The notes: generated from the letters alone by a model not told the origin. 64,000 bases of DNA from an uncultured Bacilli bacterium (GCA_944358775.1 CALVRU010000002.1:7138-71137), one strand, 5' to 3'; shown: positions 3,554 to 63,009, counted from the first letter of the stretch. Numbers and translations are program-made.

Positions 3554-5580
<2,027 letters not shown>

Positions 5581-41098: not shown

Positions 41099-41149
41099 AG
41101 AGTTGTAACGGAGACCAACTATGAATAGTCAATAGTTTTTAAGAGAATT

Positions 41150-42700: not shown

Positions 42701-42729
42701 ACTGACTATATATATCATACAAGAGTTTT

Positions 42730-43800: not shown

Positions 43801-44249
43801 ATTGTTACTGATTTGACTTTAAACAATGCTTTATTTATAATGAATATAAGGTGAAGGTTGAAAAAAAATATTGACTAAATAAGAACGCAAAAAAGATTTT
43901 GAAAAAAATCGCAAAATTTTAAGGTTTATAACAAATTAAATAATAGTTGTTGAGGCATTGACTGAAAATTCTCAAACCAGAAAAGCAAGTAATGGTTTTC
44001 ACATAGATAAGGTTCCGTGCTCAAAAAGGCAACACTCATTTGTACACCGAGAATAATCGACACATATAAACATACGGGTTTAAAGATATACTTTAACACC
44101 ACTCACCTCGCCGTGCTCTGTAGTATGCCTAATAACAGTTTATTATTATACAATAGAAGTATAGTGTTGAAAATTTAATTGTTTATTTTCAATTCAATTT
44201 GTGCCTTTCAGAGGACTGAAGGGACGAAAGAAAGGAATGTTAATTAAGC

Positions 44250-48377: not shown

Positions 48378-48848
48378 TTATTTGCAAGTATAATCTTTTA
48401 GATTCTGTTCTTTGAATTCATCGATCGTTATATCTTTTGAAGAATAGAAAGATTCTGCATCGAAATTATCGCCGAATACATTTTTTAAAGCTTCTGTATC
48501 TAATTTTGTGTAATCGACAGTTACAACGTATTTTACATGTGTGTCATCCTCTTTGGAATAAGTAGCATTAAAACCATTTATTTCATTTAAAGCGCTTGCA
48601 AAAGTATTTCCAAATGATATCGTCATATCGATATAATTTGCATCCGTTTCAGAAATATTAATGTTTTCAACTGTAGTAACTTTATTGTTTTCATAAGTTA
48701 CATTCATCGTATCTGTCACTTCATAACCATCTTCATCGGTGCTTGTTTTGGTACAAGAGAGTTTGCCGGTATCCGAATTATTGCCACAGCCGGTAACAGT
48801 GAATAAACACAATGCTCCCATTGCAATAAATAGAATTCTTTTGAACAT
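48378..48848 (-). CDS. lipoprotein, possibly a superinfection-exclusion or moron gene of the phage-derived locus
   Basis: It has a signal peptide with the lipobox LFTVTGC. It lies downstream of ImmA in the same orientation. Confidence 0.6.
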   Translation of the reverse strand: MFKRILFIAMGALCLFTVTGCGNNSDTGKLSCTKTSTDEDGYEVTDTMNVTYENNKVTTVENINISETDANYIDMTISFGNTFASALNEINGFNATYSKEDDTHVKYVVTVDYTKLDTEALKNVFGDNFDAESFYSSKDITIDEFKEQNLKDYTCK

Positions 48849-48905
48849 CGTTACACCTCCTTTACTTCTAATATTTTTATTAAAAGCACCTGTACTAGCG
48901 CACCT

Positions 48906-49226
48906 TTAATCATTCTTCATTGTTTCTAGTAGAAATTGAATATAACTGTCCGCTTCATCTTCACAGTCGTCAATTCGAAATGCAAAAAGATCACGATCAA
49001 GTTGACCAAGATGACTTAATTCGATGTGAGCCAGCTCATGTAGAACAGTCTTTCTTCGCAGGTAATAGGTTAGTTTTTTGTTGATAATGATATGATAAAT
49101 CGAACGATATAAAAAGACAAAGCCTCTTATATTGTCTGGTAGATCTTCATAAGAGATAGACGCATTATAATAATTTAGAAGATCTTGTTGAGTGATGTCT
49201 CCACGTAACAAATTAATAATTTCCAT
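48906..49226 (-). CDS. ImmA/IrrE family metallo-endopeptidase
   Basis: The HEXXH motif (LHELAHIELSH) is present. The gene is paired with an upstream XRE repressor. Confidence 0.7.
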   Translation of the reverse strand: MEIINLLRGDITQQDLLNYYNASISYEDLPDNIRGFVFLYRSIYHIIINKKLTYYLRRKTVLHELAHIELSHLGQLDRDLFAFRIDDCEDEADSYIQFLLETMKND

Positions 49227-49354
49227 ATTACTTACTCCTTTAGAATAAGTACCTATACTAGCATACTATATTTTTTGTATCCTCAAAAGGGAAAAACATA
49301 TACTTAAAATAATGGTTGTATTGGAAAGCTTTGTATATTGAAATAAAATAATTG

Positions 49355-49711
49355 CTATTCGGAATCAAATCCTAATTGCTTGTCGACTTCTTTTTTTCTT
49401 TTTTCAATAATAAAACGAATCATCTCTTTATCATCTTCGGTCAATATTTTTTTGTTCTTGTCAAATAAAATTTCAACCTCATCAAAATTAATGTTATTTT
49501 CTTTAGTTAAATCTTTTCCTAATAAATCGGATAGTGAAACATTAAGAGCATCTGCTAACTTGACAGCATTATCTACCGTTGTTTCGATTTCACCATTTTC
49601 GATTCTTGATATAGTAGATCGATCGATGGCGACTTTATCCGCCAATTCTTGTTGAGAGAAACCATTAATAATTCTTAAATGTTTAACGTTCTTATTTAAA
49701 AATTCAGCCAT
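49355..49711 (-). CDS. XRE-family HTH repressor (CI/ImmR-like)
   Basis: The HTH is QQELADKVAIDRSTISRIENGE. It is divergent from a Cro-like gene. Confidence 0.75.
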   Translation of the reverse strand: MAEFLNKNVKHLRIINGFSQQELADKVAIDRSTISRIENGEIETTVDNAVKLADALNVSLSDLLGKDLTKENNINFDEVEILFDKNKKILTEDDKEMIRFIIEKRKKEVDKQLGFDSE

Positions 49712-49777
49712 TGTTCTCCTCCTAACATCTTAATTATATCATAGAAAAGAGAAAGAGCAACCAAAAATGTGTAAACT

Positions 49778-49819
49778 TGCACAAAAAGAATTGACTTTGT
49801 GCATATAATCACATATAAT
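49778..49819 (+). promoter_or_regulatory. rightward promoter (TTGACT-17-TATAAT) with an overlapping operator-like inverted repeat, forming a CI/Cro-type switch region
   Basis: The -35 TTGACT is at 49791-49796 and the -10 TATAAT at 49814-49819, with a 17-nt spacer. The inverted repeat TGCACAAA (49778-49785) / TTTGTGCA (49796-49803) straddles the -35. Confidence 0.55.
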
Positions 49820-49841
49820 GATGGAGAATAGGAGGAATAAA

Positions 49842-50063
49842 ATGCTGGAAGCGATTGGAACAGAACTAAAAGTAATTCGCGTCAGAAAAGGATTAAAATT
49901 AAAAGATGTAGCAAATGATTTAGGAATTAATAACAAAACATTAGGAAGATATGAAACGAATGCAATGGGATTATCGGTAGAAAGACTCGAAGAAATTTTG
50001 AATTATTACAGCATAGATAAAAATATTTTTTTTAAAAATATATGTGATAATATGCACAAATGA
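49842..50063 (+). CDS. XRE-family HTH protein (Cro-like)
   Basis: The HTH is LKLKDVANDLGINNKTLGRYE. The RBS is AGGAGG 5 nt upstream of the ATG. Confidence 0.65.
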   Translation: MLEAIGTELKVIRVRKGLKLKDVANDLGINNKTLGRYETNAMGLSVERLEEILNYYSIDKNIFFKNICDNMHK

Positions 50064-50422
50064 TAAGAGGAGTAGAGATTATATTGATAAGTCAAGGAGG
50101 TGAATAAAACGAAAAGACTAGTACTAAAAGAACACTGGAAAGAACGATTTGCGAACTTAATGTTCTTCATAGGGATTGTAATATTTCTATCTTTCGCAAC
50201 AATCAGAATTTCAAGTTTAGGAGGATAAAATGAAACAACAAAAAAGAGAACCCAACCACCAAGTAAAAGTTCCCTTTGTTCTGATGAACGACTAAATTAT
50301 ATCATAAGACGATGACAGAAACAATAATGAGAACAGGATTGTTCTAGATATACCAAAAAAAGAAACAGAAAAATAGAGTGGAGTGAGTTTTATCAATTTA
50401 CTCTTAGAAAAGGAGGAGAAAA

Positions 50423-50842
50423 ATGACTTTAAAAGAGGCAAATAAAGAATTAGAAAAGTTAGAAAATGATTACGAATTTTTTCTAAATGAAAAGGCAGAA
50501 ATCGAAGGCATTGTATTACCAAAATCACCTTCGTACCAACAGGAGAAAGTAGATGGTGGGAAACGCCAAGATCTATTAGCAAAGTACGTCGAGTTAAAAG
50601 ATCTAAAAGCGATTGATGAAACGTTAAATTATATTTCACGGCAGAAAAAAAGTATTATGAAATGGATCGAAAATGAATTGAAAATTTTAGAAAAATATAG
50701 CGATATAGAAAGATTGATTGTCCATTATAAGGAGGAGGACACACGAAACCTAACATGGCTACAAATTGCTCAATTGGTTCACTATTCTTCCCCTCAATGT
50801 CGGCGGATTTATCAAAACTACAAAAGAAAAAGAAATGCATAA
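50423..50842 (+). CDS. putative late-gene transcriptional regulator (sigma-70 region-4-like HTH, ArpU/RinA-like); function inferred
   Basis: It has a strong RBS (AAAGGAGGAG). A C-terminal HTH-like segment (TWLQIAQLVHYSSPQCRRIYQNYKRK) is present. It sits between the regulatory and structural modules. Confidence 0.35.
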   Translation: MTLKEANKELEKLENDYEFFLNEKAEIEGIVLPKSPSYQQEKVDGGKRQDLLAKYVELKDLKAIDETLNYISRQKKSIMKWIENELKILEKYSDIERLIVHYKEEDTRNLTWLQIAQLVHYSSPQCRRIYQNYKRKRNA

Positions 50843-51073
50843 TTTCTTTTTTATTGATTTCAAATTGTGATTTTCTAAGCGAAAACAATTGCCCGGAGAC
50901 AATATAGTATGTTCTTCGATGAAAGATAGAATAATTAGATGACTCGCACATGTCTATCCTTTTTTAGGATGAGCACCCATGATCACTTTTTTTTGATAAA
51001 TTGGTATTGTGATAAATTAGAAACAACAAGAATTGTTGAATATGGATTTTCTATGATAAGGAGGTAATGATAA

Positions 51074-51154
51074 ATGAGCGATGCGGTAATTATTACATTG
51101 ATGGTTTGTATAACTTTAGTAGGATTAGCTTATTTAGGAAAAGAAAAAAAATAG
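51074..51154 (+). CDS. 26-aa hydrophobic peptide (MSDAVIITLMVCITLVGLAYLGKEKK); candidate small membrane protein or type-I-toxin-like peptide
   Basis: A GGAGG sits 9 nt upstream of the ATG. The peptide is a single TM helix followed by a KEKK tail. Confidence 0.3.
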   Translation: MSDAVIITLMVCITLVGLAYLGKEKK

Positions 51155-51425
51155 AGATATTAGAAATATGAAAAAGAACAAAGAAAAATTAGAGAACCCA
51201 TTTTGTGATTTCTCTTTTTTTATGCGTCATCGCTGTAATGGATGTATTCGATCGAAAAAGTGTGAGGAGTGGAATGATGAAAATCGGAATAAACGAAATC
51301 GGAATCATTGCTATAGCCGTCATCCTAATAATTTGCTATCTCCGAAGCGGAAGAAATAAATAATGTTGGCGTTCGTAAGATGTAAGTCCAATCAATTGAC
51401 AGCTTCCTACTATCTGGAAAAATAT

Positions 51426-51503
51426 CGCAGGATAGAGTAGCCTGGTTAGCTCGCCAGTGTCGTTAGCTGGAGAACGTGGGTTCAAATCCCACTCCTGCAA
51501 CCA
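51426..51503 (+). tRNA. tRNA, 78 nt with CCA encoded; hand-folded anticodon CGU (Thr) but with an atypical anticodon loop
   Basis: A full cloverleaf folds. The acceptor stem is CGCAGGA/TCCTGCA with a C1·A72 mismatch. The D-arm is GAGT/GCTC with loop AGCCTGGTTA. The anticodon stem is CCAGT/GCTGG with loop GTCGTTA. The variable loop is AGAAC. The T-arm is GTGGG-TTCAAAT-CCCAC. The 3' end is ACCA. Confidence 0.65.
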
Positions 51504-51643
51504 ATCGAAGCAAAGAACGATTCTATGTAGTTCTCATCAAAAGTACGAAAGGAGCATAGAAATTCGTTCTTTCACTTGTCTTTTACTTGGTTAGACAATA
51601 AAGAGACCAAGGTGAGGGAGTTACTTTATTACCCTGATCAAAA

Positions 51644-52372
51644 ATGGAGGAGATTATGAAAAAAGAAAGCATGCCTTTCGAGATTCCATTACCAATGGAA
51701 AAGGAAACGAAAGAAGGCCTTAACACAGTTACTCAGTCTGCCAACAAAACTGAGGGGACAGGAGTAGAACCTGTAAAAAAAACACAAAAATTTTTCACTC
51801 AAGAAGAAGTGAATGCATTAATTCTTAAGGCTACTAAAAATATGCCGAGTAAAAATGAATTAAGAGAGTTTAAAGAGTGGAAAGAAAGTAAAAAAACAAA
51901 CGACGAACACCTTAAATTATTAAACGAAATAGAAAAATTCACGAATAATTTAATGTATGCCAATCATAAATCAGTAGTCGCGAATGCTGGTGTCGATCGA
52001 CGCTTTCAGAAGTTTGTTTTATCCGAAGTATCTAAATTAGAAGGTGATTTCGAAGAAAACCTTGAAAAGTATTTAAAAGAAAATTCTCAATTTTTAAATA
52101 CTGACAATCATAAGGACACGAAAAACACAGATACTTTTCAAAAAAGATTCAGTCAATCGATTAACGAAAGAACAGAATTAGAAGATAGGCTTCAATTTAC
52201 AAAAGATAGTATCAACACAAAACAAGTTATGAAAGATATTTATGATCAAGTAAATGTTTTGCTTGCAAATATGAGTTTCTATGTAGAAACCTTAAAAACG
52301 CTAGGATTAAGTTCACATGAAAAGTCTGATGCAATAAATTGTGGATTTGAAAATAAAGCAGAAAAATCTTAA
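51644..52372 (+). CDS. hypothetical phage-derived protein
   Basis: It is the first ORF of the co-directional structural block, after the tRNA. Confidence 0.45.
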   Translation: MEEIMKKESMPFEIPLPMEKETKEGLNTVTQSANKTEGTGVEPVKKTQKFFTQEEVNALILKATKNMPSKNELREFKEWKESKKTNDEHLKLLNEIEKFTNNLMYANHKSVVANAGVDRRFQKFVLSEVSKLEGDFEENLEKYLKENSQFLNTDNHKDTKNTDTFQKRFSQSINERTELEDRLQFTKDSINTKQVMKDIYDQVNVLLANMSFYVETLKTLGLSSHEKSDAINCGFENKAEKS

Positions 52373-52411
52373 CGAGAATGGCAAAGGAACTCAAGAGGAG
52401 ATTAGTAGATT

Positions 52412-52849
52412 ATGATTGAACAAATAAGAGCTTATATTGAAACTTGCCCATTTTTAAATGAACTTGCTGAGTTAAATCAGAATAACTCGATAGAACAAGA
52501 TAAAAACTATTCGATCAATGAATCAGCCGACTATAATCCAGTCATCTATTCTTTTCTAAATGGAGAGAAAGAAATGCAGTTTGCTTTTCATTTGGATACC
52601 TGTCTTTCTTGGACAGATCCGCTTCAAGAAAACACGAATACGTCTTTATTTTTTGAAAAATTTAGAAATTGGCTAGAAGAAAATGACGAACAAAATATTT
52701 ATCCAGAAGTGGATGATAATATTTTACCGTTATCTATTAGTACGACAACGAATGAGTATATGGTTGAACCAAATTCAACCGAAGCACTTTATCGAATTAA
52801 TGGCATATTTACTTATATAAAAACGAAGGGAGAAGAAAATAATGAGTAG
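52412..52849 (+). CDS. hypothetical phage-derived protein (possible tail terminator or completion protein)
   Basis: It sits immediately upstream of, and is translationally coupled to, the major tail protein gene. Confidence 0.4.
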   Translation: MIEQIRAYIETCPFLNELAELNQNNSIEQDKNYSINESADYNPVIYSFLNGEKEMQFAFHLDTCLSWTDPLQENTNTSLFFEKFRNWLEENDEQNIYPEVDDNILPLSISTTTNEYMVEPNSTEALYRINGIFTYIKTKGEENNE

Positions 52850-53351
52850 ATTTGTAAAAAGAACAGAAATTATGGCGTTCTTAAATACAGCGCCAACCGC
52901 AGATACAGAAACATGGGCTTTAGTGGGAAATGGAATGACGAGTGGTTCCTATACCTATGAAGCACAAGAAACAAGTGAAACCTATATTGTAAATGATAAT
53001 GCTACAACAACAGTAGACAGTTATGCACTTTCCGTTGATGGAGAGATGAAATGTATTTTTGGTGATGAAGTCTACGACTATATTAATGGTCTAAGATATC
53101 AGTTAGCAACGGGAACAGATGCCGAAACAACAGTATTATTAGTTGATAAATACGACGTTACAGAGGATCAATCATTTAAAGCCCAGAAGTTTGCTTGTTC
53201 CATTAGCATTAGCAGTTATGGTGGCGATGGTGGGGCAACTCCAACAATTGCATTTAAAATTAATGTAAATGGAGATCCAGTTAACGGAACAGTTACATTA
53301 ACTGCCGGAAAACCTGTCTTTACCGAAGAAACAACTACAATCGAAGGGTAA
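52842..53351 (+). CDS. phage major tail (tube) protein, siphovirus type
   Basis: It is 169 aa, Thr/Gly-rich and beta-rich, with a phi13/TP901-1-like size and composition. It is followed by the canonical pair of chaperone genes and a tape measure gene. Confidence 0.5.
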   Translation: MSRFVKRTEIMAFLNTAPTADTETWALVGNGMTSGSYTYEAQETSETYIVNDNATTTVDSYALSVDGEMKCIFGDEVYDYINGLRYQLATGTDAETTVLLVDKYDVTEDQSFKAQKFACSISISSYGGDGGATPTIAFKINVNGDPVNGTVTLTAGKPVFTEETTTIEG

Positions 53352-53387
53352 GAAATCATCTTACCCTTTATTTTTTTAGGAGGATAA

Positions 53388-53885
53388 ATGAACGATTATA
53401 TCAAGTTAAAACAAAGAAATACACTTCGTATTGGTATCAAAGATGAAAATGGAACTACCAAACTAGATCAAGATGGCCAAGAAGTATTTATCGAATTTGA
53501 TTTAGAAGATCTCGATGTAATAGATAATTATAGTAAAGCGATTGCCGGTTGTGAAAAAGCCAGTAACACGTTAAAGATGGATTTACTTGTGATCGATAAA
53601 AAACCAGATGTTGAAATCCAAGAAGGCTTGACCAAAAATCAAAAAGCAAAAATGGAAGCTTTGAAAAAGTACTATAAATCGATTGAAAAGGCAATGGATT
53701 TATTTTTAGGGGAAGGTGGATTCTCGAAAATCTTTGGCAAAAAAAGATATCTAACAATGCTCGATGATTTAGCAGAAATGTTGACACCGATTATGCCACT
53801 TTTCAAAGTTAATATCGATAACATTCACAAAAAAATTACTACCAAATACAAAATGACCGATGAAAATGTGTTGAAAGATGAATAA
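53388..53885 (+). CDS. tail assembly chaperone (gpG-like)
   Basis: Call by position: it is the first of two overlapping ORFs between the major tail protein gene and the tape measure gene. Confidence 0.35.
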   Translation: MNDYIKLKQRNTLRIGIKDENGTTKLDQDGQEVFIEFDLEDLDVIDNYSKAIAGCEKASNTLKMDLLVIDKKPDVEIQEGLTKNQKAKMEALKKYYKSIEKAMDLFLGEGGFSKIFGKKRYLTMLDDLAEMLTPIMPLFKVNIDNIHKKITTKYKMTDENVLKDE

Positions 53886-54441
53886 ATATCCTGAATTTAT
53901 CGAAGTAGGCAATAAAAGTTACAAAATAAATACGAGCTTTTGGGTTGCCTTAAAGTGCGATGAAATATTTCGAGATAATTCCATTTCTGACTATGAAAAA
54001 ACACTTGCCATCATTTACATTTTACTTGGCGAAGAAGCGATGAAAGATACCGACAACCATAAAAAAATAATCGATTTATTAACCAAGTATTTGCTCTGTG
54101 GAAAAAATCCAGAAGAAATGGAAGGAAATACCGACGAACCGAGTATGGATTTTAAACAAGACATGGGCAGAATAAAAACAAGTTTTATGTCGGATTATCA
54201 AATTGATTTAGACAAAACCGACATGCATTGGTGGAAATTTCACGATGCCCTAGAAGGTCTTACCGATGATAGTGTATTATCCAGAACAAGAATGATTCGT
54301 GAAGAACCATTAAGTAACAAAAAAGGAAAAGAACGTGAAAAATGGGAAAAAGCAAAAAAACAAGTGGCATTACGTCACGAAAAGACGTCCCAAGAAAAAG
54401 AACTAGATAAGTATTGGGAAGAACAAATGAAAAAGAGGTGA
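53878..54441 (+). CDS. tail assembly chaperone (Phage_Gp15-like / gpT-like)
   Basis: It overlaps the previous ORF by 8 nt in the +1 frame. IDLDKTDMHWWKFHDALEGL resembles the Gp15 family. Confidence 0.45.
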   Translation: MNKYPEFIEVGNKSYKINTSFWVALKCDEIFRDNSISDYEKTLAIIYILLGEEAMKDTDNHKKIIDLLTKYLLCGKNPEEMEGNTDEPSMDFKQDMGRIKTSFMSDYQIDLDKTDMHWWKFHDALEGLTDDSVLSRTRMIREEPLSNKKGKEREKWEKAKKQVALRHEKTSQEKELDKYWEEQMKKR

Positions 54442-54553
54442 GTAAACGGATGGTTATTTAAATATAAAAACACAGATTGATAATACAGATTTCAAGAAAT
54501 CATTACAACAAACAAAAAAAGAACTTCAAAAGTTCAAACAAGAGATAGAAAGT

Positions 54554-55900
54554 TTGAAAGAAGAAGAATTAACCATAGAAACAGATGGAATAGATAAGGC
54601 TCTTGAGGGAATCAAGACAAAGATAAATGGAATAACAAAATCAATTACCGACAGCTTATCCGGAATCGATTTAACTAAATTTTTAAGTGGATCGGGAGAG
54701 TCTTCTGAACAGATCACTATATTAGGACAAATTATCATAGCGATCAATTCAATAACAAATTTAATGAATAGTTTTGCCCAAAGTGGTATGACATTAGGTG
54801 AAGTAGCCGGATTATTAGGAATCGTTTTAGGTGAAGTAGCAGCAGCCTTCCTTATATTATTTGGTGTTATGACTATTTTACAACCCAGTTGGGAAAGCAT
54901 AGCTCTAGCTACTACTATATTTGAAGGTTTGGTTTCGGTCTTAAGTTCGGTATGCCTCTTAATCGAGACCTTTTCCACAAGTGGATTAACACTAAATCAA
55001 GTAATTGGTCTTATGGCCACAGTCTTATTAACAATTGTTGGCTTAATGATCGCGATTACTACCTTAGGTCCGTCGATGACAGAAGGCTTAATTCCATTTA
55101 GCATCCTGGTAGATAAAATATCAACTATTTTGAATGTTATGGCACAGACGATTCCAATTATTTTAGAGGCGGTCGGAAGCTTTATAACGACGATTGCTCC
55201 ATCGATTTGTACTGTTTTAGAAATCATTGGGAACCTAATTGAAAAAATAATTTATGCACTTGGAACAGTCTTACCACCCATTATTAATTCCATCGGTAAT
55301 CTATTTACTAGTATTTTTAATGGCATTAGTACTGTTATCACTAGTGTAGGAAATGCCCTTGTTAAAATATTAGAAGCAATTGGCAACTTGGTTGATCAAG
55401 TATTAACGTCACTTTTAAATTTTATTAACAATTTAGGACCAGCAATTGAAAACTTCGTAGATAGTGCAATTTCAGCAGTCACGAAATTGATTAATTTTAT
55501 GATCAGTGGTATTGAATATCTAGTTAATATTTTAGTTGTGGATGGTGTAAATGCGATCATCAGAGGAATTAATAGTATCGGTAAATATGTCGGCTTTACG
55601 ATTCCAACGTTAGAAAAATTTCGAATTGAAAGATTTAAACCGACTTATATGGCAACCGGTGGTATCATCGATGTTCCAAGACGGGGAGTTCCATTAGTTG
55701 CAAATGTTATCGGTGGCGAAGCTGGTGCCGAAGGAGTATTACCATTAACAAACGCCGCTACTATGCAACGGCTAGGTCAAGAAATCGCCAAATGGATCGT
55801 CCTTAATATTCAACTCAATAATTATATTGATGGACGCTTATTATGTAAAAATATCAAAAAAATTATGAACGGTCAGGAATTTTCTAGAAATGGAGGTTAA
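54554..55900 (+). CDS. tail tape measure protein (short)
   Basis: It has an N-terminal coiled coil, multiple hydrophobic helical segments and repeated (I/L)xxxGNL(I/V) motifs. It is placed after the chaperones. The ORF is open from 54446 with no ATG, so the annotated start is a TTG. Confidence 0.5.
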   Translation: MKEEELTIETDGIDKALEGIKTKINGITKSITDSLSGIDLTKFLSGSGESSEQITILGQIIIAINSITNLMNSFAQSGMTLGEVAGLLGIVLGEVAAAFLILFGVMTILQPSWESIALATTIFEGLVSVLSSVCLLIETFSTSGLTLNQVIGLMATVLLTIVGLMIAITTLGPSMTEGLIPFSILVDKISTILNVMAQTIPIILEAVGSFITTIAPSICTVLEIIGNLIEKIIYALGTVLPPIINSIGNLFTSIFNGISTVITSVGNALVKILEAIGNLVDQVLTSLLNFINNLGPAIENFVDSAISAVTKLINFMISGIEYLVNILVVDGVNAIIRGINSIGKYVGFTIPTLEKFRIERFKPTYMATGGIIDVPRRGVPLVANVIGGEAGAEGVLPLTNAATMQRLGQEIAKWIVLNIQLNNYIDGRLLCKNIKKIMNGQEFSRNGG

Positions 55901-55902
55901 AT

Positions 55903-56265
55903 ATGGAAGTAAAAATTAATGAATTACCGAAAATATTATCAAATCCCAAACATTCGATTGAAGGAGTTTGGGCAAGCGATGCGGGTCGAAACAGCAATAG
56001 TGGTAAATATAGTGGTACTTTTATTGGCTGGTTCGATCAGCTAGAGATATCCGTCGGTGAAACAACCCAAGAGGAATTAACGATTATTCGAAATGCGATA
56101 GAGCATCCTATTATAGAAAATGTAACCTTTATCGATACGAAAACAGGAACTAGTAAAACGGAAGATTTCTACGGTACAACGATTACAGGAGAAAGGCTGA
56201 ACTCCAAAAAGTACAAGCCTTTTTCTTTTAGTTTACAAGCGATCGAAAGAAGAAGTGATATGTAA
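55903..56265 (+). CDS. small tail component (possible minimal distal-tail or tube-initiator protein)
   Basis: Call by position: it lies between the tape measure gene and the large tail-tip protein gene, and is only 120 aa. Confidence 0.3.
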   Translation: MEVKINELPKILSNPKHSIEGVWASDAGRNSNSGKYSGTFIGWFDQLEISVGETTQEELTIIRNAIEHPIIENVTFIDTKTGTSKTEDFYGTTITGERLNSKKYKPFSFSLQAIERRSDM

Positions 56266-56282
56266 CGACTTATTATGAGATC

Positions 56283-58334
56283 ATGCAAAAAGCGGGACGG
56301 CGAATCGATCCCAAACTTTATTATTACGATAACGATAATAAAATAGAAATTACTCATGATGATATCGATAGTATAAAACTTTATTTTAATGCAGTCTTAT
56401 CCGGATCAACCATGTTGGGACTTACGGTCACATCCAAGGTTAAACTTCCGAATAAAGCAATCTATTTTCAAAATACAGTAAGTTTCAATGACACAACTGC
56501 TACAAACACGTATGGACCATTTTACTTAAAAGAAGAACCTGAATTAAACGCGGATAGTAAAACCTATGAATATATCATGTATGATAGCTTTTTAAATGCA
56601 ATGACCGATTATCAACCAATTATGATCAATTATCCATGTACTGTTCTTGAATTCTTAAAACAACTATGTACGGAATGCGGTTATACCACGAACATAACCA
56701 GTTTACCGAATGGATCCAGAATCATAAAGAAAGACATTTATGCCGATATAAATTTTACGTATCGAGATGTCTTTGATGATATTGGACAAGCAACTGCAAC
56801 TTTATTTCGATGCAATAATAATCAGGTTGAAAAATGTTCCTTGGGTACTTCGACTATAACGGTGGATGACGATCTATTAAAAAATCAAAATATTTCGTTA
56901 GGCGAACATTTTGGTCCCATCAATTCGGTTGTATTATCAAGATCTTCCGAATCGGATAACATTTATAAACGAGATGAAACATTAACCAGTTGGAATGAAT
57001 ATAAAATTGTCGATAATCAGTTGATGAATGATAACGATCGAAGTGATTATCTAGACGAGTTATATGATGCATTATATGGGATTGAATACGATATATTCGA
57101 TCTAGAACTAGTTGGATATGGTGGCTTTAACCCTTTGGATAAGATTGAAATAGTTACGAACAATACTTCTTACCATTCTTATGTTTTGAATAATGAGATA
57201 GAATTCAGTCAAGGTGTAGCTGAGTGTATTTATACGGAAATGCCAGAAGAAAGTACGACAGATTATAAAGCAGCCAGTACAACAGATAAAAAAATAAATC
57301 AAACATGGATTATTGCCAATAAAAACACCCAACAAATCGAACAAGTAATTCAGACACAAACTTCTCAATCTGAAATGATCAATAGTATTCAAGATGGACT
57401 AGATGATTTAGTGGATCAAATCGATTCGAACATCATCTATTATAAAGGAGATTATATTCCGACTTTGGCAAATGAACCGGCTTCGACATGGACCACGGAT
57501 CAGTTAAAAGAAGATCATTTAGGAGACTTATTCTATAACACGGAAACCGGTAGTGCATATCGTTTTATCAAGGATGGAGTCATTTACACATGGCAAGAAG
57601 AGCCAGATTTATCAGAAGCTTTAGAGATGGCGGAAGATGCTATTAATAAGGCGACAAATGCCGAAACTATAGCAAATTCGAAAAGACGAGTATTCGTGAC
57701 AGAACCAACTGTACCATATGATATTGGCGATCTATGGACCGATGGAGAAGATCTATTTGTATGTAAAACGGCCAAAACAATCGAGGCATCATTCTCTATA
57801 GAAGATTGGGAAAATACCACAAATTATGCAGAACAAATCAATACGACTAATGTCAAGTTGAATGAAACGATTTCTAATTTAGATGGGACAACTTCCACAG
57901 TTGCGAATTTGCAAACCACGTTAACCAACGAATATCTAAATGCAGAACAAATTGAATCGATTACGAACGGACAAGCCCAAGATATTGAGGCACTCTCTGG
58001 AAAAATAACGCAAGTTGAAACACAAGCGGGTTCGATTGATTTAAGAGTTACAGAAATCGAAAACAACGGGGTATCAAAAGTTAGCACCGTAACTGGTACA
58101 TTTGATTTAAATGGATTAAAAATTTCGAAACTTGGTGAAGCTATGAGTTCTGTTTTAGACTGGGATGGATTAGTTGTAAAACGAGATCAAGAGGAAGTGT
58201 TAACCGTTCGATCTGCTGGTGTAGAATCAGAAAATCTAAAAGTTCGTAAATGGTTGACATTGGAACCGGCTAGAGTGGAACAAATTCATGCTGTAAGTGA
58301 TTCAAGCGAAAACGGAGTTGGATTTTTTGTTTAA
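56283..58334 (+). CDS. tail tip / tail-associated protein (Tal-like)
   Basis: It is 683 aa with a coiled-coil C-terminal part and lies between the tape measure region and the fibre genes. Confidence 0.4.
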   Translation: MQKAGRRIDPKLYYYDNDNKIEITHDDIDSIKLYFNAVLSGSTMLGLTVTSKVKLPNKAIYFQNTVSFNDTTATNTYGPFYLKEEPELNADSKTYEYIMYDSFLNAMTDYQPIMINYPCTVLEFLKQLCTECGYTTNITSLPNGSRIIKKDIYADINFTYRDVFDDIGQATATLFRCNNNQVEKCSLGTSTITVDDDLLKNQNISLGEHFGPINSVVLSRSSESDNIYKRDETLTSWNEYKIVDNQLMNDNDRSDYLDELYDALYGIEYDIFDLELVGYGGFNPLDKIEIVTNNTSYHSYVLNNEIEFSQGVAECIYTEMPEESTTDYKAASTTDKKINQTWIIANKNTQQIEQVIQTQTSQSEMINSIQDGLDDLVDQIDSNIIYYKGDYIPTLANEPASTWTTDQLKEDHLGDLFYNTETGSAYRFIKDGVIYTWQEEPDLSEALEMAEDAINKATNAETIANSKRRVFVTEPTVPYDIGDLWTDGEDLFVCKTAKTIEASFSIEDWENTTNYAEQINTTNVKLNETISNLDGTTSTVANLQTTLTNEYLNAEQIESITNGQAQDIEALSGKITQVETQAGSIDLRVTEIENNGVSKVSTVTGTFDLNGLKISKLGEAMSSVLDWDGLVVKRDQEEVLTVRSAGVESENLKVRKWLTLEPARVEQIHAVSDSSENGVGFFV

Positions 58335-58348
58335 AAAAGGAGGAAAAT

Positions 58349-59719
58349 ATGGCAACATTTTTAAATAGTTCAAATTTTAGCGGTCGTAATGGAACCCATT
58401 TTCATTTGAATTTTTATTATGATATTATCAATACTAGCATAGAAAATAACAATCATACCGTACGATATTATCTATATTTTCAAGCAGATCCGGGATATTA
58501 TGGATCTGGATCGACAGTTACGGGCTATATCAATGAAAATGTAGTTGGAACAACAAATTCGCTTGGTACAGGTGAAACCAAATTACTTGGTACGTTAGAT
58601 GTGGTAGTTCCTCATGATGATCTTGGGAATGCAACAGCATCTTATAGTGCATCGATTAATACCCCGTGGACGTTAGGAAATGCCTCGGTCAGTGGATCAT
58701 TTCCACTTCCCAATATTGCTCGAGCAAGTAAGCCAACCGCAACAAGTGGAAATATTGAAGATGCTATTATTATTTATACTAACAGAAAATCCCCAATATT
58801 CACTCATACTTTAAAATACGTATTTGGGTCTTTAATGGGAACTATCGAAAATGGAGTAACTGATTCATATCCATGGGAACTTCCAGATTCATTCTATACG
58901 CAAATTCCAAACGCTAGTTATGGAATAGGAACGATCACTTGTGAGACATATAATGACTCACAGTTGGTTGGTACAAATACATGTCAATTTACCGCATACA
59001 CTAGCGAGTCAAAATGTAAGCCGAACGTATCAATTACTGTTGCTGATACGAGTTCTCTAGCAACTTCTTTAACTGGAAACGATCAGAAACTAATTAAATT
59101 TGTAAGCAATCCTAAAGTGACTGTAACTACGTCAGCGAAAAATAGTGCAACGATTCAAAGTACTTTAGTATCGTGTGGAGATGGTAAATCTGGTAGTGGT
59201 TCTGAAATTACATTCAACGGTTCTGAAAGTGGTTATTTTAAAGGGACTACAACAGACAGTCGTGGTTTCAGTAATTCGGATGAAAAAACGTTGGAAATGG
59301 TTGATTATATTAAACTAACATGTAATGCCGATGTATCACGAGAAAGTAATACGAGTAATACTATTAAAGCAAAAATTACAGGAAATTATTTTGCGGGTAA
59401 TTTTGGTGCATCTATTAACACATTAAATTTGAAATTCCGATATAAAGAATCAACATCATCCGAGTGGCCAGAAACGTATAATAATATTTCGACTACAATC
59501 GATAGTAGTAATAACACTTATTCTGCCGATGCCACATTGGGCACAAATTTTGATTACCAAAAGCAATATGATTTTCAGTTTTTAGCAACAGATAAGGTTG
59601 TATCCACTGTGAGTGAGTGTAGTGTAAAACAAGGAATTCCGACATTCGCAATATTTAAAAAATTTATAGAACTTTGGGGTTTTAAAGCTTTTGAAGTTAT
59701 TGAAGAAGAGGAGGAATAA
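58349..59719 (+). CDS. putative tail fibre / receptor-binding protein
   Basis: It is 456 aa, Ser/Thr/Asn-rich and beta-rich, in the position expected for a receptor-binding protein. Confidence 0.35.
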   Translation: MATFLNSSNFSGRNGTHFHLNFYYDIINTSIENNNHTVRYYLYFQADPGYYGSGSTVTGYINENVVGTTNSLGTGETKLLGTLDVVVPHDDLGNATASYSASINTPWTLGNASVSGSFPLPNIARASKPTATSGNIEDAIIIYTNRKSPIFTHTLKYVFGSLMGTIENGVTDSYPWELPDSFYTQIPNASYGIGTITCETYNDSQLVGTNTCQFTAYTSESKCKPNVSITVADTSSLATSLTGNDQKLIKFVSNPKVTVTTSAKNSATIQSTLVSCGDGKSGSGSEITFNGSESGYFKGTTTDSRGFSNSDEKTLEMVDYIKLTCNADVSRESNTSNTIKAKITGNYFAGNFGASINTLNLKFRYKESTSSEWPETYNNISTTIDSSNNTYSADATLGTNFDYQKQYDFQFLATDKVVSTVSECSVKQGIPTFAIFKKFIELWGFKAFEVIEEEEE

Positions 59720-59842
59720 AATGTTTATTCAAAATAAAGATTGGGAGGGAGGTACAATTGATTAAATTGTATTGCTCACTCTTTTTAAGGAAAGGAGAAA
59801 AAGATATTTAAATGTCTAACTTTCTTTTATTGGAGTGTAATT

Positions 59843-60262
59843 ATGAGTAGAGTAGTTATGGAGTGTGATTTAATACATCCGGTTGGAGAAGTGATTTTCA
59901 ATGCTTTGTCTACATTTGACCCGAATGAGCAATGGCCAGGAACAACTTGGATACGCTTAAAAGCATGTGGTTTATTTGGAGTAGATGAGAATGATTCGAA
60001 ATATTCAAATCCAGGCACTTATATCGGAGAAAATGAACATATTTTAACAGAACAAGAGTTGGCAGGACATGTTCATTTTGGATTAACTTGTGATTTAGAT
60101 ATACGGCTGCATAATAATGGCAGCGCATCAGGATACACTTTACCATTTAACCATAATGGAGGATATGAAACGCCGATAAGAACAAACCCAGCAGGAGGCA
60201 ATCAACCACACAATAATGTACAGCGTTCTTATTTAGGGTATTATTGGCTTCGTACCGCTTAA
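59843..60262 (+). CDS. phage tail collar-domain protein (MdpB-like), paralog 1
   Basis: The C-terminal GGNQPHNNVQRSYLGYYWLRTA matches the Collar-domain terminus GG(S/N)Q(A/P)HNN.QP.L. The N-terminal part fits a collar fold (PVGEVIF...WPGTTWIRL). Confidence 0.6.
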   Translation: MSRVVMECDLIHPVGEVIFNALSTFDPNEQWPGTTWIRLKACGLFGVDENDSKYSNPGTYIGENEHILTEQELAGHVHFGLTCDLDIRLHNNGSASGYTLPFNHNGGYETPIRTNPAGGNQPHNNVQRSYLGYYWLRTA

Positions 60263-60295
60263 CTCATAATAATATAATTTTGCAATTGAAATTTT

Positions 60296-60754
60296 ATGAC
60301 AAGATTGAATTTGGGAAAAGAACTAGTTGATTTAATTTATCCAGTAGGAAGTACTGTATTTAATAAAAATGCAGATTTTGATCCAAATGAATTGTGGATT
60401 GGAACAGTCTGGGAGAATCTTGGATGCTGTGTTCTTATGGGATGTGATCCGAACGATTCAAAATTTAATCATTCTGGAACGTACGTGGGAGAAAATGAAC
60501 ATATTTTAGCAGAGCAAGAGTTACCATACATTAGTGGATATTTCAGTTTTCATGGTGCCGGAAGTGCAACTGTAGGACAAGGATATTCTGGATATGTTAA
60601 ACCGGGACTCCAAAGAAGTAATTACCGTTCAGGAGGAGAAGATCTTGCCGGCGCTGTTTCATATGATAGTTTTACATTTAGTTTTGGTGGCAATCAACCG
60701 CATAATAATGTTCAACGATCATATCTAGGATACTGGTGGATTAGGACGAATTAA
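60296..60754 (+). CDS. phage tail collar-domain protein (MdpB-like), paralog 2
   Basis: It shares the blocks YPVGS.VFN...FDPNE.W.GT.W, GTY.GENEHIL.EQEL and the terminal GGNQPHNNVQRSYLGYWWIRTN with paralog 1. The middle is divergent. Confidence 0.6.
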   Translation: MTRLNLGKELVDLIYPVGSTVFNKNADFDPNELWIGTVWENLGCCVLMGCDPNDSKFNHSGTYVGENEHILAEQELPYISGYFSFHGAGSATVGQGYSGYVKPGLQRSNYRSGGEDLAGAVSYDSFTFSFGGNQPHNNVQRSYLGYWWIRTN

Positions 60755-60899
60755 AAAGGAAAATTTGTGAGGTTAAGTATTTTTTATGAATTAAAATTAA
60801 ATAATCAAATGGTAATTTATAATTCTGAAGCAAACAAGCCGAGAACATTAGAATAGATATTAATTGAATTAAAAAGAAGTAAAACAACAGATAAGTGAT

Positions 60900-61172
60900 T
60901 TGAAAAATAATATGTTATACATTACAGGATTATATTCCAATAATTTAGATGAGGCACAAAAAGATGGATGTTATTACTTCGATAAAAATAGTAAAAATAA
61001 ACCCAATACAGATTACGGAACTGTTTTTACGATGGTTTCGAATGGAATCGAAGGTAATAATATTGACAAATGGGTTAACCACCTCGCATTTGGGACCAAT
61101 TATGTAATTTGTTATCGCCAAAAAGTAAACCAAAATGTATGGTCTAATTGGATTCAAATTCAATCTAAATAG
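60900..61172 (+). CDS. hypothetical protein (phage-derived)
   Basis: A 90-aa ORF in the tail-fibre-to-lysis interval. Confidence 0.35.
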   Translation: MKNNMLYITGLYSNNLDEAQKDGCYYFDKNSKNKPNTDYGTVFTMVSNGIEGNNIDKWVNHLAFGTNYVICYRQKVNQNVWSNWIQIQSK

Positions 61173-61189
61173 CTAGGAGGAAATAAAAG

Positions 61190-61537
61190 GTGAAAGAAAT
61201 ATTCAGAAAAGTATTATTAAAAATTCCGAAAATGATTCGAAGTTTTCTAATCGAAGATTTGGTAAAAGAACATAAGGTTTTTCACAGTGAAATAGATAAT
61301 ATTAATGCAAAAATCGATGATAACGAGAAAGACAGATTACGATATGAGATATTATCATTTGCATCATCGTTAAGGAGTGGAGAAAAACATACGACGCAAG
61401 AGTTTGATACGATATTTATGTTTCATTCGAAATATCAAACAATAATTAAGAGATTAAATGTATCCAACGGGTATTTAGATGAAGAGTTTGATTATATTAT
61501 TCAAGAATTTCAAAAGAGAAAAAAGGAGATATTTTAA
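61190..61537 (+). CDS. hypothetical protein (phage-derived)
   Basis: A 115-aa ORF with RBS AGGAGG, lying upstream of the holin gene. Confidence 0.35.
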   Translation: MKEIFRKVLLKIPKMIRSFLIEDLVKEHKVFHSEIDNINAKIDDNEKDRLRYEILSFASSLRSGEKHTTQEFDTIFMFHSKYQTIIKRLNVSNGYLDEEFDYIIQEFQKRKKEIF

Positions 61538-61538
61538 T

Positions 61539-61871
61539 ATGAATTTAGAATTGTTGGCACAAATATTAGCGGTCGCAGTAGCCAGTGGTATCATTTGTAC
61601 CCAAGCGACCCAGTTTATAAAAGAACTGGGGTTAATGAATAAATGCATTTTCCGAGTTGCTTCAATCATATTTTCTTTTGGAATGGGATATTGCTTTGCA
61701 TATAGTTTTACAAATTTAACAATAGAATACCGTCTTTGGATAGCAGTCTTGTCTATTATTGGTGCAGAAGCGATCTACAAATCATTTGAAGGAAAATTTG
61801 GATTAAAGCCACTTTCTGAAATTGCCATTATTGAAAAAAATAAAATCGAAGAAAATGAAATTCCTAGATAA
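61539..61871 (+). CDS. putative holin
   Basis: It is about 110 aa with two TM helices (LAQILAVAVASGIICT, VASIIFSFGMGYCFAY) and a charged C-terminus, and lies directly upstream of the lysin gene. The start is the ATG at 61539 inside a longer ORF. Confidence 0.5.
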   Translation: MNLELLAQILAVAVASGIICTQATQFIKELGLMNKCIFRVASIIFSFGMGYCFAYSFTNLTIEYRLWIAVLSIIGAEAIYKSFEGKFGLKPLSEIAIIEKNKIEENEIPR

Positions 61872-61898
61872 ATATTTTAATAGAAAATAATAAAATAA

Positions 61899-62957
61899 AT
61901 GAAACAAATTCTAATTGAAGGAAATAGAGAAAGCGAGTACGATAAAATGGAATATTTTACGTTTCCAATGGAAACAATGAATGTAACACAGACTTATCTC
62001 GGTAAAACCTCACATTATCCACATACAACAGGGACTCCAAAAGATTATCCAATTGATTGCGCAGGAATTGATTCTGGGCAATCTGCCATCTTTGCGCCGG
62101 TCGACATGAAGGTAACAGCCAAGCGAGGAATTGGACAATCGAATGTTACCAATACAGTTTGGCTGGTCTCTCAAAACAAAGTAAGTACACCTTCAGGAGG
62201 CTTTCAGGTGTTTATGACATTGACTCACTGGAATGATTCTGATCCATTTATGAAAAAGTGGAATGTTGGATCGGTTATTCCTAAAGGTGAGATCATTTGT
62301 GGAGAAGGAACAGATGGTGCTACTGCTAATCACATTCATTTGGTGGTAGGAGTGGGTTATAGTGATAATTGGACTAAGTCTTCTACTGGCAAATGGATTA
62401 TAATCGGGGATACGAGAAAGCCGGAAGAAATAATGTATATTAATCCTAGTTTTACGAATGTGATAAAAAACAATGGTGGACTTTCTTGGAAAGAGATCCC
62501 TAAAAAAATTGGAAACCCAGTATCTCGCGACGAAACAAGAGATCAGTTACAAGTTAATGTAGATAATGCATATGCACGTGATTCGGCTGCCGGTAATATT
62601 TTAGGTTATATCAACCCGGGTATTTACAATTCATGGGAAGTGATTGCGAAAGATGGTTATGAATGGCATAGAGTAGAAGAAAATATTTGGATTGCCAACG
62701 GCTCCTGGTGTACATGGTTACCAAAAAAAGAAAAGGAAGATCCACAAGTAATAGCAGATTTGCAAGATGAAATTGCAGAAAAAGAAAAAGAGATAGAGGA
62801 ACTTAAGAAAATCGTTACGGAACGTGATTTAGAGATTGAAAACTTACAATGGAGGCAAGAACAAAACGGTTTCAAAAAGTTCATTGCCTCCAAAAATGCC
62901 AAATATTATATCTACTTGTATAAAAACGAAATACTGAATTACGAGATAAAGGGTTAG
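61899..62957 (+). CDS. putative endolysin: M23-family peptidase domain plus an SH3b-like domain and a C-terminal coiled coil
   Basis: GEGTDGATANHIHLVVG resembles the M23 HxH motif region (G.SG.STG.HLHF). WEVIAKDGYEWHRVEE...WIANGSW is SH3b-like. It is the last gene before a terminator. Confidence 0.5.
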   Translation: MKQILIEGNRESEYDKMEYFTFPMETMNVTQTYLGKTSHYPHTTGTPKDYPIDCAGIDSGQSAIFAPVDMKVTAKRGIGQSNVTNTVWLVSQNKVSTPSGGFQVFMTLTHWNDSDPFMKKWNVGSVIPKGEIICGEGTDGATANHIHLVVGVGYSDNWTKSSTGKWIIIGDTRKPEEIMYINPSFTNVIKNNGGLSWKEIPKKIGNPVSRDETRDQLQVNVDNAYARDSAAGNILGYINPGIYNSWEVIAKDGYEWHRVEENIWIANGSWCTWLPKKEKEDPQVIADLQDEIAEKEKEIEELKKIVTERDLEIENLQWRQEQNGFKKFIASKNAKYYIYLYKNEILNYEIKG

Positions 62958-62984
62958 TCTGTAAGATTAACCCTTTATTTTATT
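62951..62984 (+). terminator. Rho-independent terminator closing the tail-module operon
   Basis: Hairpin GGGTTA-gtctgtaaga-TTAACCC followed by TTTATTTTATT. Confidence 0.55.
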
Positions 62985-63009
62985 ATGGAAAACATCAGTT
63001 TTCCATTTA

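Follow-up and report, generated by a model that had tools for sequence, protein, structure and literature searches.

F-type tailocins, which are headless, flexible and non-contractile phage tails, already include several examples from Gram-positive bacteria: monocin of Listeria, efagin of Enterococcus faecalis and an element of Clostridium histolyticum. Monocin has a tape measure protein of 622 amino acids (aa) and a tail of 103 nm, and its anti-repressor metalloprotease, MpaR, also controls a co-resident phage in Listeria. The receptors of efagin are variable cell-wall polysaccharides. Here we describe a further candidate in a 64,000-nucleotide stretch of DNA from an uncultured Bacilli bacterium (GCA_944358775.1, CALVRU010000002.1:7138-71137), hereafter called the window, which is chromosomal and has a G+C content of about 33%. 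The element spans positions 48378 to about 62985, with the coordinates and gene order given in an earlier note on this sequence, in which it was proposed to be an F-type tailocin.

We consider it probable that the element descends from a temperate siphophage, has been domesticated and fixed in the chromosome, and functions as an F-type tailocin. This interpretation is supported by a complete set of sheath-less tail genes accompanied by switch and lysis genes, by the loss of head, packaging and integration functions, by a fixed chromosomal site whose genes are intact and under selection, and by variation among strains in the distal tail genes. Every expectation of the tailocin proposal that could be examined in silico agreed with the sequence. 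The same note described such loci as poorly catalogued outside a few genera, which overstates their rarity given the three systems named above.

A siphovirus-type tail cluster

Genes were assigned by searches of Pfam, PHROGs and NCBIfam, by phmmer against PDB chains, and by Foldseek comparison of AlphaFold2 models (Table 1). The tail gene set is complete for a siphovirus, and includes a terminator, tube, chaperones, tape measure, distal tail protein (Dit), hub and, depending on the count, three or four distal proteins. The siphovirus-type tail genes proposed previously are therefore backed by matches to tube_lmo2291 (tube), Phage_Gp15 (chaperones), tape measure PHROGs and DUF859, and by the predicted hub fold of Tal. 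No open reading frame (ORF) of the element matches a sheath family, which indicates that the tail is non-contractile. Wedge families were not matched either, and these two negative results, along with a tube of siphovirus family, set the element apart from R-type tailocins and contractile injection systems.

The NCBIfam model that recognizes the tube protein, tube_lmo2291, represents the A118-type tube family. The protein is also similar over 126 residues to the tube of the C. histolyticum F-tailocin (PDB 11OK; E 6.1e-5), whereas phmmer searches of the PDB with Tal, the DUF859 protein, the terminator, the Gp10_C proteins, the Gp15-like chaperone and the lysin returned nothing meaningful. A hairpin followed by a run of T nucleotides, with the appearance of a transcription terminator, lies after the tube gene at 53343-53369. 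The 11.4-kb tail region has no megablast match among 50,697 phage records, and the nearest cultured phages are about 30% identical at the protein level, namely C. difficile siphophages for the tube and Streptococcus phages for the DUF859 protein.

Between the tRNA and the tube gene, the earlier note had left two small ORFs unnamed. The 145-aa ORF encodes the tail terminator, which is the last of four genes that separate capsid and tube in related phages and the sole one kept here. The other, of 242 aa, proved to be a remnant of head genes, as described below. The small tail component that had been suggested as Dit is indeed a distal tail protein, but of a 120-aa minimal form like lambda gpM. 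For Tal, the N-terminal 320 aa are modelled with confidence (pLDDT about 90) as the hub fold of gp27, Mu gp44 and FtbL. Its Foldseek matches (best E 1.7e-12) include the diffocin hub (1.8e-12), Mu gp44 (1.6e-10), monocin FtbL (6.6e-9) and Listeria prophage gp18 (9e-9), and Tal homologues have only the N-terminal 52-57% in common. The DUF859 protein is a candidate specificity determinant, and the two proteins once described as carrying collar domains, which are related to each other and match Gp10_C in Pfam, are candidate receptor-binding tips. Both roles presume that these proteins bind receptors.

The cluster ends with lysis genes. A holin and an M23 lysin had been proposed, and a weak holin candidate and an endolysin-like protein are present, but the M23 family was not confirmed by Pfam or NCBIfam. 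The holin candidate is 73% identical to an ORF located after the tail genes, where the sequence of a related phage contig (L014) ends, and this match fixes its start at 61539. The N-terminal 200 aa of the lysin share 27-30% identity with the phi29-type 'morphogenesis protein 1/endolysin' and with endolysins of Clostridium innocuum phages, and the protein is identical in six of six copies. It has no Pfam or NCBIfam domain match, and a BLASTP comparison with lysostaphin, made with an approximate query sequence, was not significant.

Missing head functions and deletion scars

Terminase, portal, functional capsid, connector, replication and integrase genes are all absent from the 64-kb window and from the 8.5 kb beyond it, as the earlier note had maintained for most of these functions. 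When 51 head and packaging proteins from six related prophages were compared with the whole window by tblastn, only the 242-aa ORF and the regulator were matched. Pfam searches of the remaining window ORFs, together with precomputed Pfam data for 8.5 kb downstream, revealed only cell-envelope genes and the transposases of insertion sequences (IS). Neither att repeats nor a nearby integrase had been expected, and a search of the flanks for att-like direct repeats yielded merely short matches at chance level and the repeats between the Gp10_C paralogues. The gap between the cro-like gene and the regulator is 360 bp, which leaves no room there for a replication module. This gene content corresponds neither to an intact temperate siphophage (integrase, att sites, replication, terminase, portal, capsid and connector genes are missing) nor to a defective phage like PBSX or a gene transfer agent (no gene for a capsid, portal or terminase is present).

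Relatives of the tube protein (36-90% identity) were found in six GTDB genomes, three IMG/VR contigs and 27 metagenome contigs, in addition to contigs L013 and L014, whose tube proteins are the closest (88-90% identical). The related metagenome-assembled genomes (MAGs) include rabbit ('Lapin') and mouse-catalogue (MGBC) assemblies, and one Tal homologue derives from Candidatus Faecenecus. About 20 of these loci have enough upstream sequence for comparison, and in every one of them, L013 and L014 included, a head module precedes the tail genes, which argues that the lineage described here is a specific deletion derivative. The module consists of terS, terL (Terminase_3, E 5e-35), a portal-sized gene, minor capsid protein 2 (E 2e-61), scaffold, capsid and three connectors. 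Head proteins were named where BLAST detected them. At one locus (L045) the head module is of another type and was recognised solely by the pattern of its ORFs. Loci that correspond to full prophages are L007-L014, L034, L037, L039, L042 and L052. In three distant relatives whose tube is 36% identical, there are two tandem tube paralogues (L060 9989-11260, L062 9989-11275 and L063 2224-3495), an arrangement reminiscent of the TTP/TTP* duplication that has been drawn for the tailocin locus of C. histolyticum.

Comparison with head-bearing phages locates the deletions. Residues 5-182 of the 242-aa ORF are homologous to the L013 scaffold (50% identity, E 7e-49), and residues 167-232 match residues 12-85 of the ORF at the capsid position in L013 and L014, annotated as 'Phage_capsid_4 (weak)' (E 2e-6). 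The ORF is a deletion junction at which the remainder of the capsid gene and the three connector genes were lost. In full prophage L011, a homologue of the 139-aa regulator is directly upstream of a tRNA and the small terminase gene, and the same tRNA-Thr lies between that regulator and terS. This arrangement indicates that a block of about 5 kb for packaging, portal and minor capsid proteins was excised between the tRNA and the scaffold gene. The internal tRNA had been predicted previously, and ARAGORN identifies it as tRNA-Thr(CGT). Single tRNAs occupy the same slot upstream of terS in other prophages, with tRNA-Met in L007 (344-419), tRNA-Lys in L009 (1090-1163) and tRNA-Thr in L011 (1012-1085).

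The tape measure gene has also been shortened. The ORF called from a TTG codon at 54554 would encode 448 aa. The N-terminus that is conserved in phages starts at 54446, behind the Shine-Dalgarno (SD) sequence AAGAGGTGA, which extends the protein to about 484 aa. Compared with the tape measures of L013 and L014 (774 and 771 aa), the first 31 and the last approximately 434 aa are kept at 70% identity, and about 290 aa are gone.

The start of this gene (window 54433-54556) is unusual. The SD is followed by ACG-GAT-GGT (T-D-G-Y-L), where prophage L007 has ATG (M-D-G-Y-L), and the same ACG is carried by the head-containing phages L013 (~6820-6862) and L014 (~4768-4822). This points either to initiation at a non-AUG codon or to a recoding event not yet recognised in these phages.

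Conservation and variation among strains

The element is found at the same site (GT4-Alg14-GT28-Flg_new | element) and with the same layout in every contig recovered, as had been anticipated for a tailocin that keeps its chromosomal context. An exact-sequence listing places the regulator in 65 index blocks and the lysin in 33, and the contigs derive from samples with several accession prefixes (ONAT22, SAYO22, BRZ and Logan runs). Eight of the nine distinct contexts of the left neighbour gene extend past it, and all eight contain the element. Copies differ by 0.1-3% at the nucleotide level, and all 19 genes are full length, free of stop codons and without frameshifts in each of the 16 contigs checked.

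Selection was assessed by comparing the window with the most divergent strain. The ratio of nonsynonymous to synonymous polymorphism per site (pN/pS) is 0.054 for flanking housekeeping genes and 0.19 for the whole element. With the DUF859 gene set aside, 22 differences in the element are nonsynonymous and 53 are synonymous, which gives a pN/pS of about 0.11 (Fisher p 6e-21 versus equality). At a pS of about 0.03, neutral evolution would be expected to yield about 200 nonsynonymous differences in the core genes, versus the 22 observed. The substitution pattern thus indicates that these core genes are under purifying selection. The scaffold-derived ORF has 3-5 nonsynonymous versus 4 synonymous changes.

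Divergence is concentrated in the DUF859 gene, which is 83-85% identical between strains at the nucleotide level, whereas its neighbours are about 99% identical. The encoded protein has a mosaic makeup. Its residues 1-120 are conserved throughout, residues 160-320 share 62-68% identity among strains but 90-95% between the window version and phage L013, and residues 321-456 are conserved among strains but not with L013. The Gp10_C genes are present in two or three copies depending on the strain (the three-copy set encodes 135, 140 and 128 aa), and their central segments differ. In strains with three copies, the third paralogue (128 aa) stands in place of the 90-aa or 134-aa ORF found elsewhere. 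Variation is confined to the distal tail genes (DUF859 and Gp10_C), which exchange segments with phage alleles in mosaic fashion. The same pairing of a conserved machine with distal genes that recombine has been reported for efagin, and is also characteristic of R- and F-pyocins and of monocins.

Gene inventory and regulatory switch

At the left end, the minus strand encodes a lipoprotein, an ImmA-like Peptidase_M78 protein and an XRE repressor. The plus strand carries, in order, a Cro-like helix-turn-helix (HTH) gene, a 139-aa regulator, two tiny ORFs, the tRNA-Thr(CGT) gene and fifteen ORFs, the last of which are the holin candidate and the lysin.

Table 1. Features of the element, with positions counted from the first nucleotide of the window.
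Feature	Position	Strand	Size and evidence
Lipoprotein	48378-48848	-	156 aa; signal peptide and Cys; weak DUF1307 and phrog_3727 matches only
ImmA/IrrE-type metalloprotease, candidate anti-repressor	48906-49226	-	106 aa; Peptidase_M78 E 3.7e-6; phrog_87 metallo-protease E 7.8e-10
XRE/CI-type repressor	49355-49711	-	118 aa; HTH_3 E 1.7e-16; phrog_8 and phrog_3 repressor families
Switch region (predicted)	49768-49819	+	palindromes 49768-49783 and 49798-49813; promoter 49791-49819
Cro-like HTH protein	49818-50063	+	81-aa ORF; HTH_3 E 3.9e-7; gene callers give 49842-50063, 73 aa
Candidate late-gene activator	50423-50842	+	139 aa; phrog_36 transcriptional regulator E 1.8e-5
tRNA-Thr (CGT)	51426-51503	+	ARAGORN; phage-derived
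Scaffold::capsid fusion ORF (deletion scar)	51644-52372	+	242 aa; gene callers start at 51656, 238 aa; weak scaffold PHROGs
Tail completion/terminator	52412-52849	+	145 aa; phrog_3266 E 1.9e-23
Major tail tube	52842-53351	+	169 aa; phrog_3099/phrog_820; NCBIfam tube_lmo2291 E 5.7e-12 (above curated cutoff)
Tail assembly chaperones, two overlapping	53388-53885, 53878-54441	+	165 aa, 187 aa; DUF6673 weak; Phage_Gp15 E 2.2e-27; phrog_706 E 1.5e-38
Tape measure	54446-55900	+	many tape-measure PHROGs; in-frame internal deletion
Minimal distal tail protein (Dit)	55903-56265	+	120 aa; tail-tube fold only, no galectin-like C-terminal domain
Tal/baseplate hub	56283-58334	+	683 aa; hub domain aa 1-~340 and lineage-variable C-terminal extension
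DUF859 distal tail protein	58349-59719	+	456 aa; DUF859 E 5.9e-41; phrog_372 E 2.3e-74
Gp10_C-domain tandem paralogues	59843-60262, 60296-60754	+	139 aa, 152 aa; Gp10_C E 3.4e-10, 1.4e-11; tandem repeats D1, D2
Two small ORFs	60900-61172, 61190-61537	+	90 aa, 115 aa; no role assigned
Holin candidate	61539-61871	+	110 aa; phrog_1299 holin E 2e-4 (weak)
Lysin	61899-62957	+	352 aa; phage-endolysin similarity; followed by hairpin and T-run 62949-62984 overlapping the stop codon

The regulators listed in the earlier note (lipoprotein, ImmA, XRE repressor, promoter and operator, Cro-like gene and late-regulator-like gene) were recovered through Pfam and PHROG matches, a TTGACT-17-TATAAT promoter and three palindromes. 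The promoter (11/12) is the best sigma-70-like match in the region, and it sits in the 105 bp that separate the divergently transcribed repressor and cro genes. Palindromes of the form TGTG-N8-CACA occur three times in the 64 kb versus 0.41 expected, with starts at 49768, 49798 and 50043. All three fall in the regulatory region, two of them in the gap between repressor and cro and the third (50043-50058) at the end of cro, and the copy at 49798-49813 overlies the -10 box of the rightward promoter. The ImmA, XRE and Cro proteins, together with this promoter and these predicted operators, make up an intact switch that belongs to the element.

Both the ImmA-like protein and the 139-aa regulator are strictly conserved, with one protein variant among 9 copies and among 10 copies, respectively, and the regulator shows synonymous changes only. 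By comparison, the lipoprotein evolves faster: its 9 copies comprise 6 protein variants, and its pN/pS of about 0.3 exceeds that of every other non-fibre gene. It could serve in superinfection exclusion or self-immunity. Temperate phages of Gram-positive bacteria encode superinfection-exclusion lipoproteins at a matching position, which makes a role in self-protection conceivable.

Two tiny ORFs lie between the late regulator and the tRNA. The first (51074-51154) has 26 codons and a strong SD, AAGGAGGT, and encodes the hydrophobic peptide MSDAVIITLMVCITLVGLAYLGKEKK. The next encodes a 63-aa protein rich in Cys, His and Arg (51168-51359), and neither matches a known family.

Alternative explanations

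Several observations somewhat dampen our enthusiasm for the tailocin interpretation. The element is known from its sequence alone, and its host is uncultured. The copies all come from a single species-level lineage (97-99.9% nucleotide identity), which implies that domestication was recent, and the selection test rests on about 75 substitutions. A second tail-only derivative was not found among the relatives in GTDB genomes, IMG/VR and JGI metagenomes, and a prophage that is merely decaying would also retain the scaffold::capsid fusion ORF. Some parts of the machine are unusual as well. The tape measure is without a segment of 290 aa that is conserved elsewhere, and its conserved N-terminus has no canonical start codon, although L013 and L014 share the ACG. 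The 90-aa ORF (60900-61172) looks N-terminally truncated relative to a 134-aa version in strain L005 (8870-9274). Finally, the holin match is weak, and the lysin is putative and assigned by endolysin similarity.

The chief rival explanation builds on some of these points, and holds that the element is an inert cryptic prophage remnant whose tail genes persist simply because little time has passed since the deletions, and serve no host function. The deletion scars in the fusion ORF and tape measure, the IS elements on both sides, the single shallow lineage and the lack of another relative with a tail-only layout could all be read in this manner. However, drift should have produced far more nonsynonymous changes in the core genes (~200 expected, 22 seen), and no frameshift or stop is present in 16 copies. 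Moreover, the deletions took exactly what a tailocin can spare, the genes for the switch, late activator, tail and lysis still share one transcriptional layout, and the tape measure deletion is in frame. The distal-fibre alleles have also been exchanged while the rest was conserved. We therefore regard an inert remnant as unlikely. Selection shows that genes are used, but not for what, and so the element might instead be a selected, inducible tail-and-lysis module whose benefit is something other than killing. Such a module could serve for programmed lysis that releases DNA, vesicles or public goods, or could supply tails to a capsid-only element or a tail-defective phage. Recombination with close phages, as seen in the 90-95% identity of the DUF859 segment to L013, points to a probably shared host in which tail complementation is conceivable, and the Listeria monocin anti-repressor offers a precedent for control of a co-resident phage. 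Yet strain-level diversification of receptor-binding proteins fits a targeting weapon rather than a lysis device, and with the three head-to-tail connector genes deleted and the terminator alone kept, the tails would be made without capsid-docking parts. These features make a non-killing role quite unlikely. Even less probable, and in our view very improbable, is that a prophage was split or rearranged, with the element as one half and the head and packaging module elsewhere in the genome, and that complete virions are still made. Our inspection covered one chromosome region (64 kb plus 8.5 kb), which leaves space for such a module, but the fusion scar shows a capsid gene that was destroyed in place and not moved. 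The connector, integrase and replication genes are also missing, the tape measure is shorter than those of the phages, and the layout is identical in all strains. Thus, a functional F-type tailocin remains the interpretation that we favor.

A proposed mode of action

If the element is a tailocin, its operation can be outlined by analogy with monocin and efagin. The XRE repressor would keep the rightward promoter shut by binding the TGTG-N8-CACA operators. A damage signal might then activate the co-transcribed ImmA-type protease, which would inactivate the repressor in the manner of MpaR of monocin or ImmA of ICEBs1. In the ImmA/ImmR pair of ICEBs1, the ImmA protease inactivates the repressor. 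Expression of Cro and of the 139-aa late activator would turn on a single late operon.

Assembly would presumably begin with an initiator complex made from the tape measure, chaperones, minimal Dit and Tal hub. The tube would polymerise to a length set by the shortened tape measure, and would then be capped by the terminator protein. The ruler principle is established for lambda gpH. On that principle, and with the monocin scale (622 aa for 103 nm), the tail is predicted to be about 70-80 nm long, versus about 115 nm for the parental phages. The holin and lysin would lyse the producer cell, and the DUF859 and Gp10_C proteins may bind a strain-variable cell-wall glycopolymer on related bacteria. 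Tal and the tape measure might then breach the membrane, and thereby kill the target without delivering DNA.

Chromosomal setting

The element is embedded in a region of cell-wall glycopolymer genes, with glycosyltransferases on both sides. The left flank (1-48.3 kb) carries housekeeping and cell-envelope genes, and its Pfam matches include a UvrD/PcrA-type helicase, an LCP-family protein, LTA-synthase-like sulfatases, an O-antigen-ligase-like protein, many glycosyltransferases and an IS110 copy. Genes for ligA, thyA/folA and gatCAB were also recognised there, from N-terminal sequences only. Two envelope proteins in this flank have distinctive architectures. One (17013-18800) has 595 aa with an ALK/LTK glycine-rich domain and a galactose-binding domain, and the other (24584-26491, minus strand) has 635 aa and five PASTA repeats.

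The right flank contains an IS200 tnpA gene with a nonsense codon, an IS110 element, glycosyltransferases and a sortase. The tnpA gene (IS200/IS605 type, Y1_Tnp; 63130-63602) lies immediately to the right of the element and is interrupted by a TAG codon, such that the ORF finder yields only a 98-aa C-terminal piece. This TGG-to-TAG change is present in all strains, and falls where the conserved Trp of the 'HTKW-C-YHIVF' motif would be expected. Comparison with two other strains (L005 and L006) shows 99.7-100% identity in the C-terminal ORF, and the broken transposase gene stands in contrast to the intact tail genes beside it.

The glycan genes upstream of the element differ by strain. The window has an IS110 copy and an Acyl_transf_3 gene at 40423-44245, where L016 (1-3819) and L020 (1-3819) carry DUF2304, HAD, ATP-grasp and polysaccharide-deacetylase genes. 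L016, which is the only contig that spans both variable regions, also has a variant Gp10_C/DUF859 set. It is conceivable that the tailocin and the receptor glycan genes form one linked 'weapon and shield' unit, in which the lipoprotein might be a dedicated self-immunity factor, but we consider this doubtful. In L005 and L027 a variant DUF859 gene lies beside upstream genes of the window type, which indicates that there is no strict link between DUF859 and the glycan genes. Were such a unit to exist, killing specificity and producer resistance would be inherited and exchanged together as a supergene.

Comparison with known systems

Gram-positive F-type tailocins are known from few organisms (Listeria, E. 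faecalis and some clostridia), to which this element would add one more from uncultured gut Bacilli. It also appears to be close to its origin, because full-phage relatives still exist at 75-90% protein identity. Steps of domestication can be read from it: the loss of integrase and early genes, the loss of packaging, the loss of capsid and connectors with a scar, and the in-frame shortening of the tape measure. The element therefore offers a natural case of a phage tail that probably became a bacterial weapon, with later exchange of receptor-binding modules with phages. In addition, the cassette of about 13 kb is small enough for heterologous expression, as has been done for monocin in Lactococcus, and could give a narrow-spectrum agent against uncultured gut commensals.

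The direct relatives are siphophages and prophages of gut Bacilli (L013, L014, L037, L039 and L007-L012), in which the genes follow the same order and a tRNA likewise occupies the slot behind the late regulator. Identities to L013 and L014 are 73-81% for the chaperones, 83-85% for Dit, 74-75% for Tal and, in L013 only, 81% for the DUF859 protein. These relatives have full-length tape measures of 750-777 aa and head and connector genes, all of which the element is without.

Among bacteriocins, F-type pyocins of Pseudomonas aeruginosa and the lambda tail resemble the element in forming a flexible, tail-only particle with SOS-linked control and a lysis cassette. However, they are Gram-negative and lambda-like, with gpL/K/I/J-type tips, lipopolysaccharide receptors and PrtN/PrtR regulation, and there is no sequence relationship. 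The F-type tailocin of C. histolyticum NCTC 503 (PDB 11OK) is likewise from Bacillota, has terminator, tube, tape measure, hub, receptor-binding and lysis genes, and provides the only solved structure with sequence similarity to the tube described here, although this similarity is distant. Its locus differs by a duplicated tube gene (TTP*) that is absent here, and its particles have been seen by electron microscopy and mass spectrometry, whereas our element is known from genes alone.

Efagin (ef1276-ef1293) is encoded by a headless chromosomal tail cluster of about 14.6 kb that, like the element, is fixed in its species at a conserved site with its ORFs maintained. Its variation clusters in a single distal targeting gene, in part through replacement of alleles by those of a phage donor, which is similar to the pattern observed here. 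The variable part of efagin is the C-terminal domain of one protein, whereas in the element it is the central segment of the DUF859 protein and the copy number of Gp10_C. Efagin is reported to be exclusive to E. faecalis, no relationship between the two systems could be established, and the element differs from efagin in lying inside a cell-wall glycopolymer gene region.

Monocin, encoded by the ftb genes of Listeria, is, like efagin, a counterpart of the element in layout and in proposed function. Both systems are Gram-positive, chromosomal, headless and non-contractile, and both have regulators, terminator, tube, two chaperones, tape measure, Dit, hub, fibres, holin and lysin in the same order. 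They also share the pairing of a CI-like repressor with a metalloprotease anti-repressor, a tube of the A118-type family, a Phage_Gp15 chaperone and the hub fold of FtbL (6.6e-9). Nevertheless, there are clear differences. FtbK, the monocin Dit, has 272 aa with galectin and 'rod holder' parts that bear side fibres, compared with a 120-aa tube fold here, and the distal proteins of monocin are FtbN/O/P instead of DUF859 and Gp10_C proteins. The monocin tape measure is longer (622 versus about 484 aa), and only the element has a scaffold::capsid scar and an internal tRNA. Phmmer searches with the tube, terminator, Gp15-like, Tal, DUF859, Gp10_C and lysin proteins against the PDB, including monocin entries 9J1J, 9J1K and 8QHS, gave no monocin match, and the similarity to monocin proteins is at the fold level only, in the hub and Dit. 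This argues for an independent domestication outside the monocin family, and the sequence comparisons indicate that the source was a different siphophage lineage, known only from gut MAGs and metagenomes.

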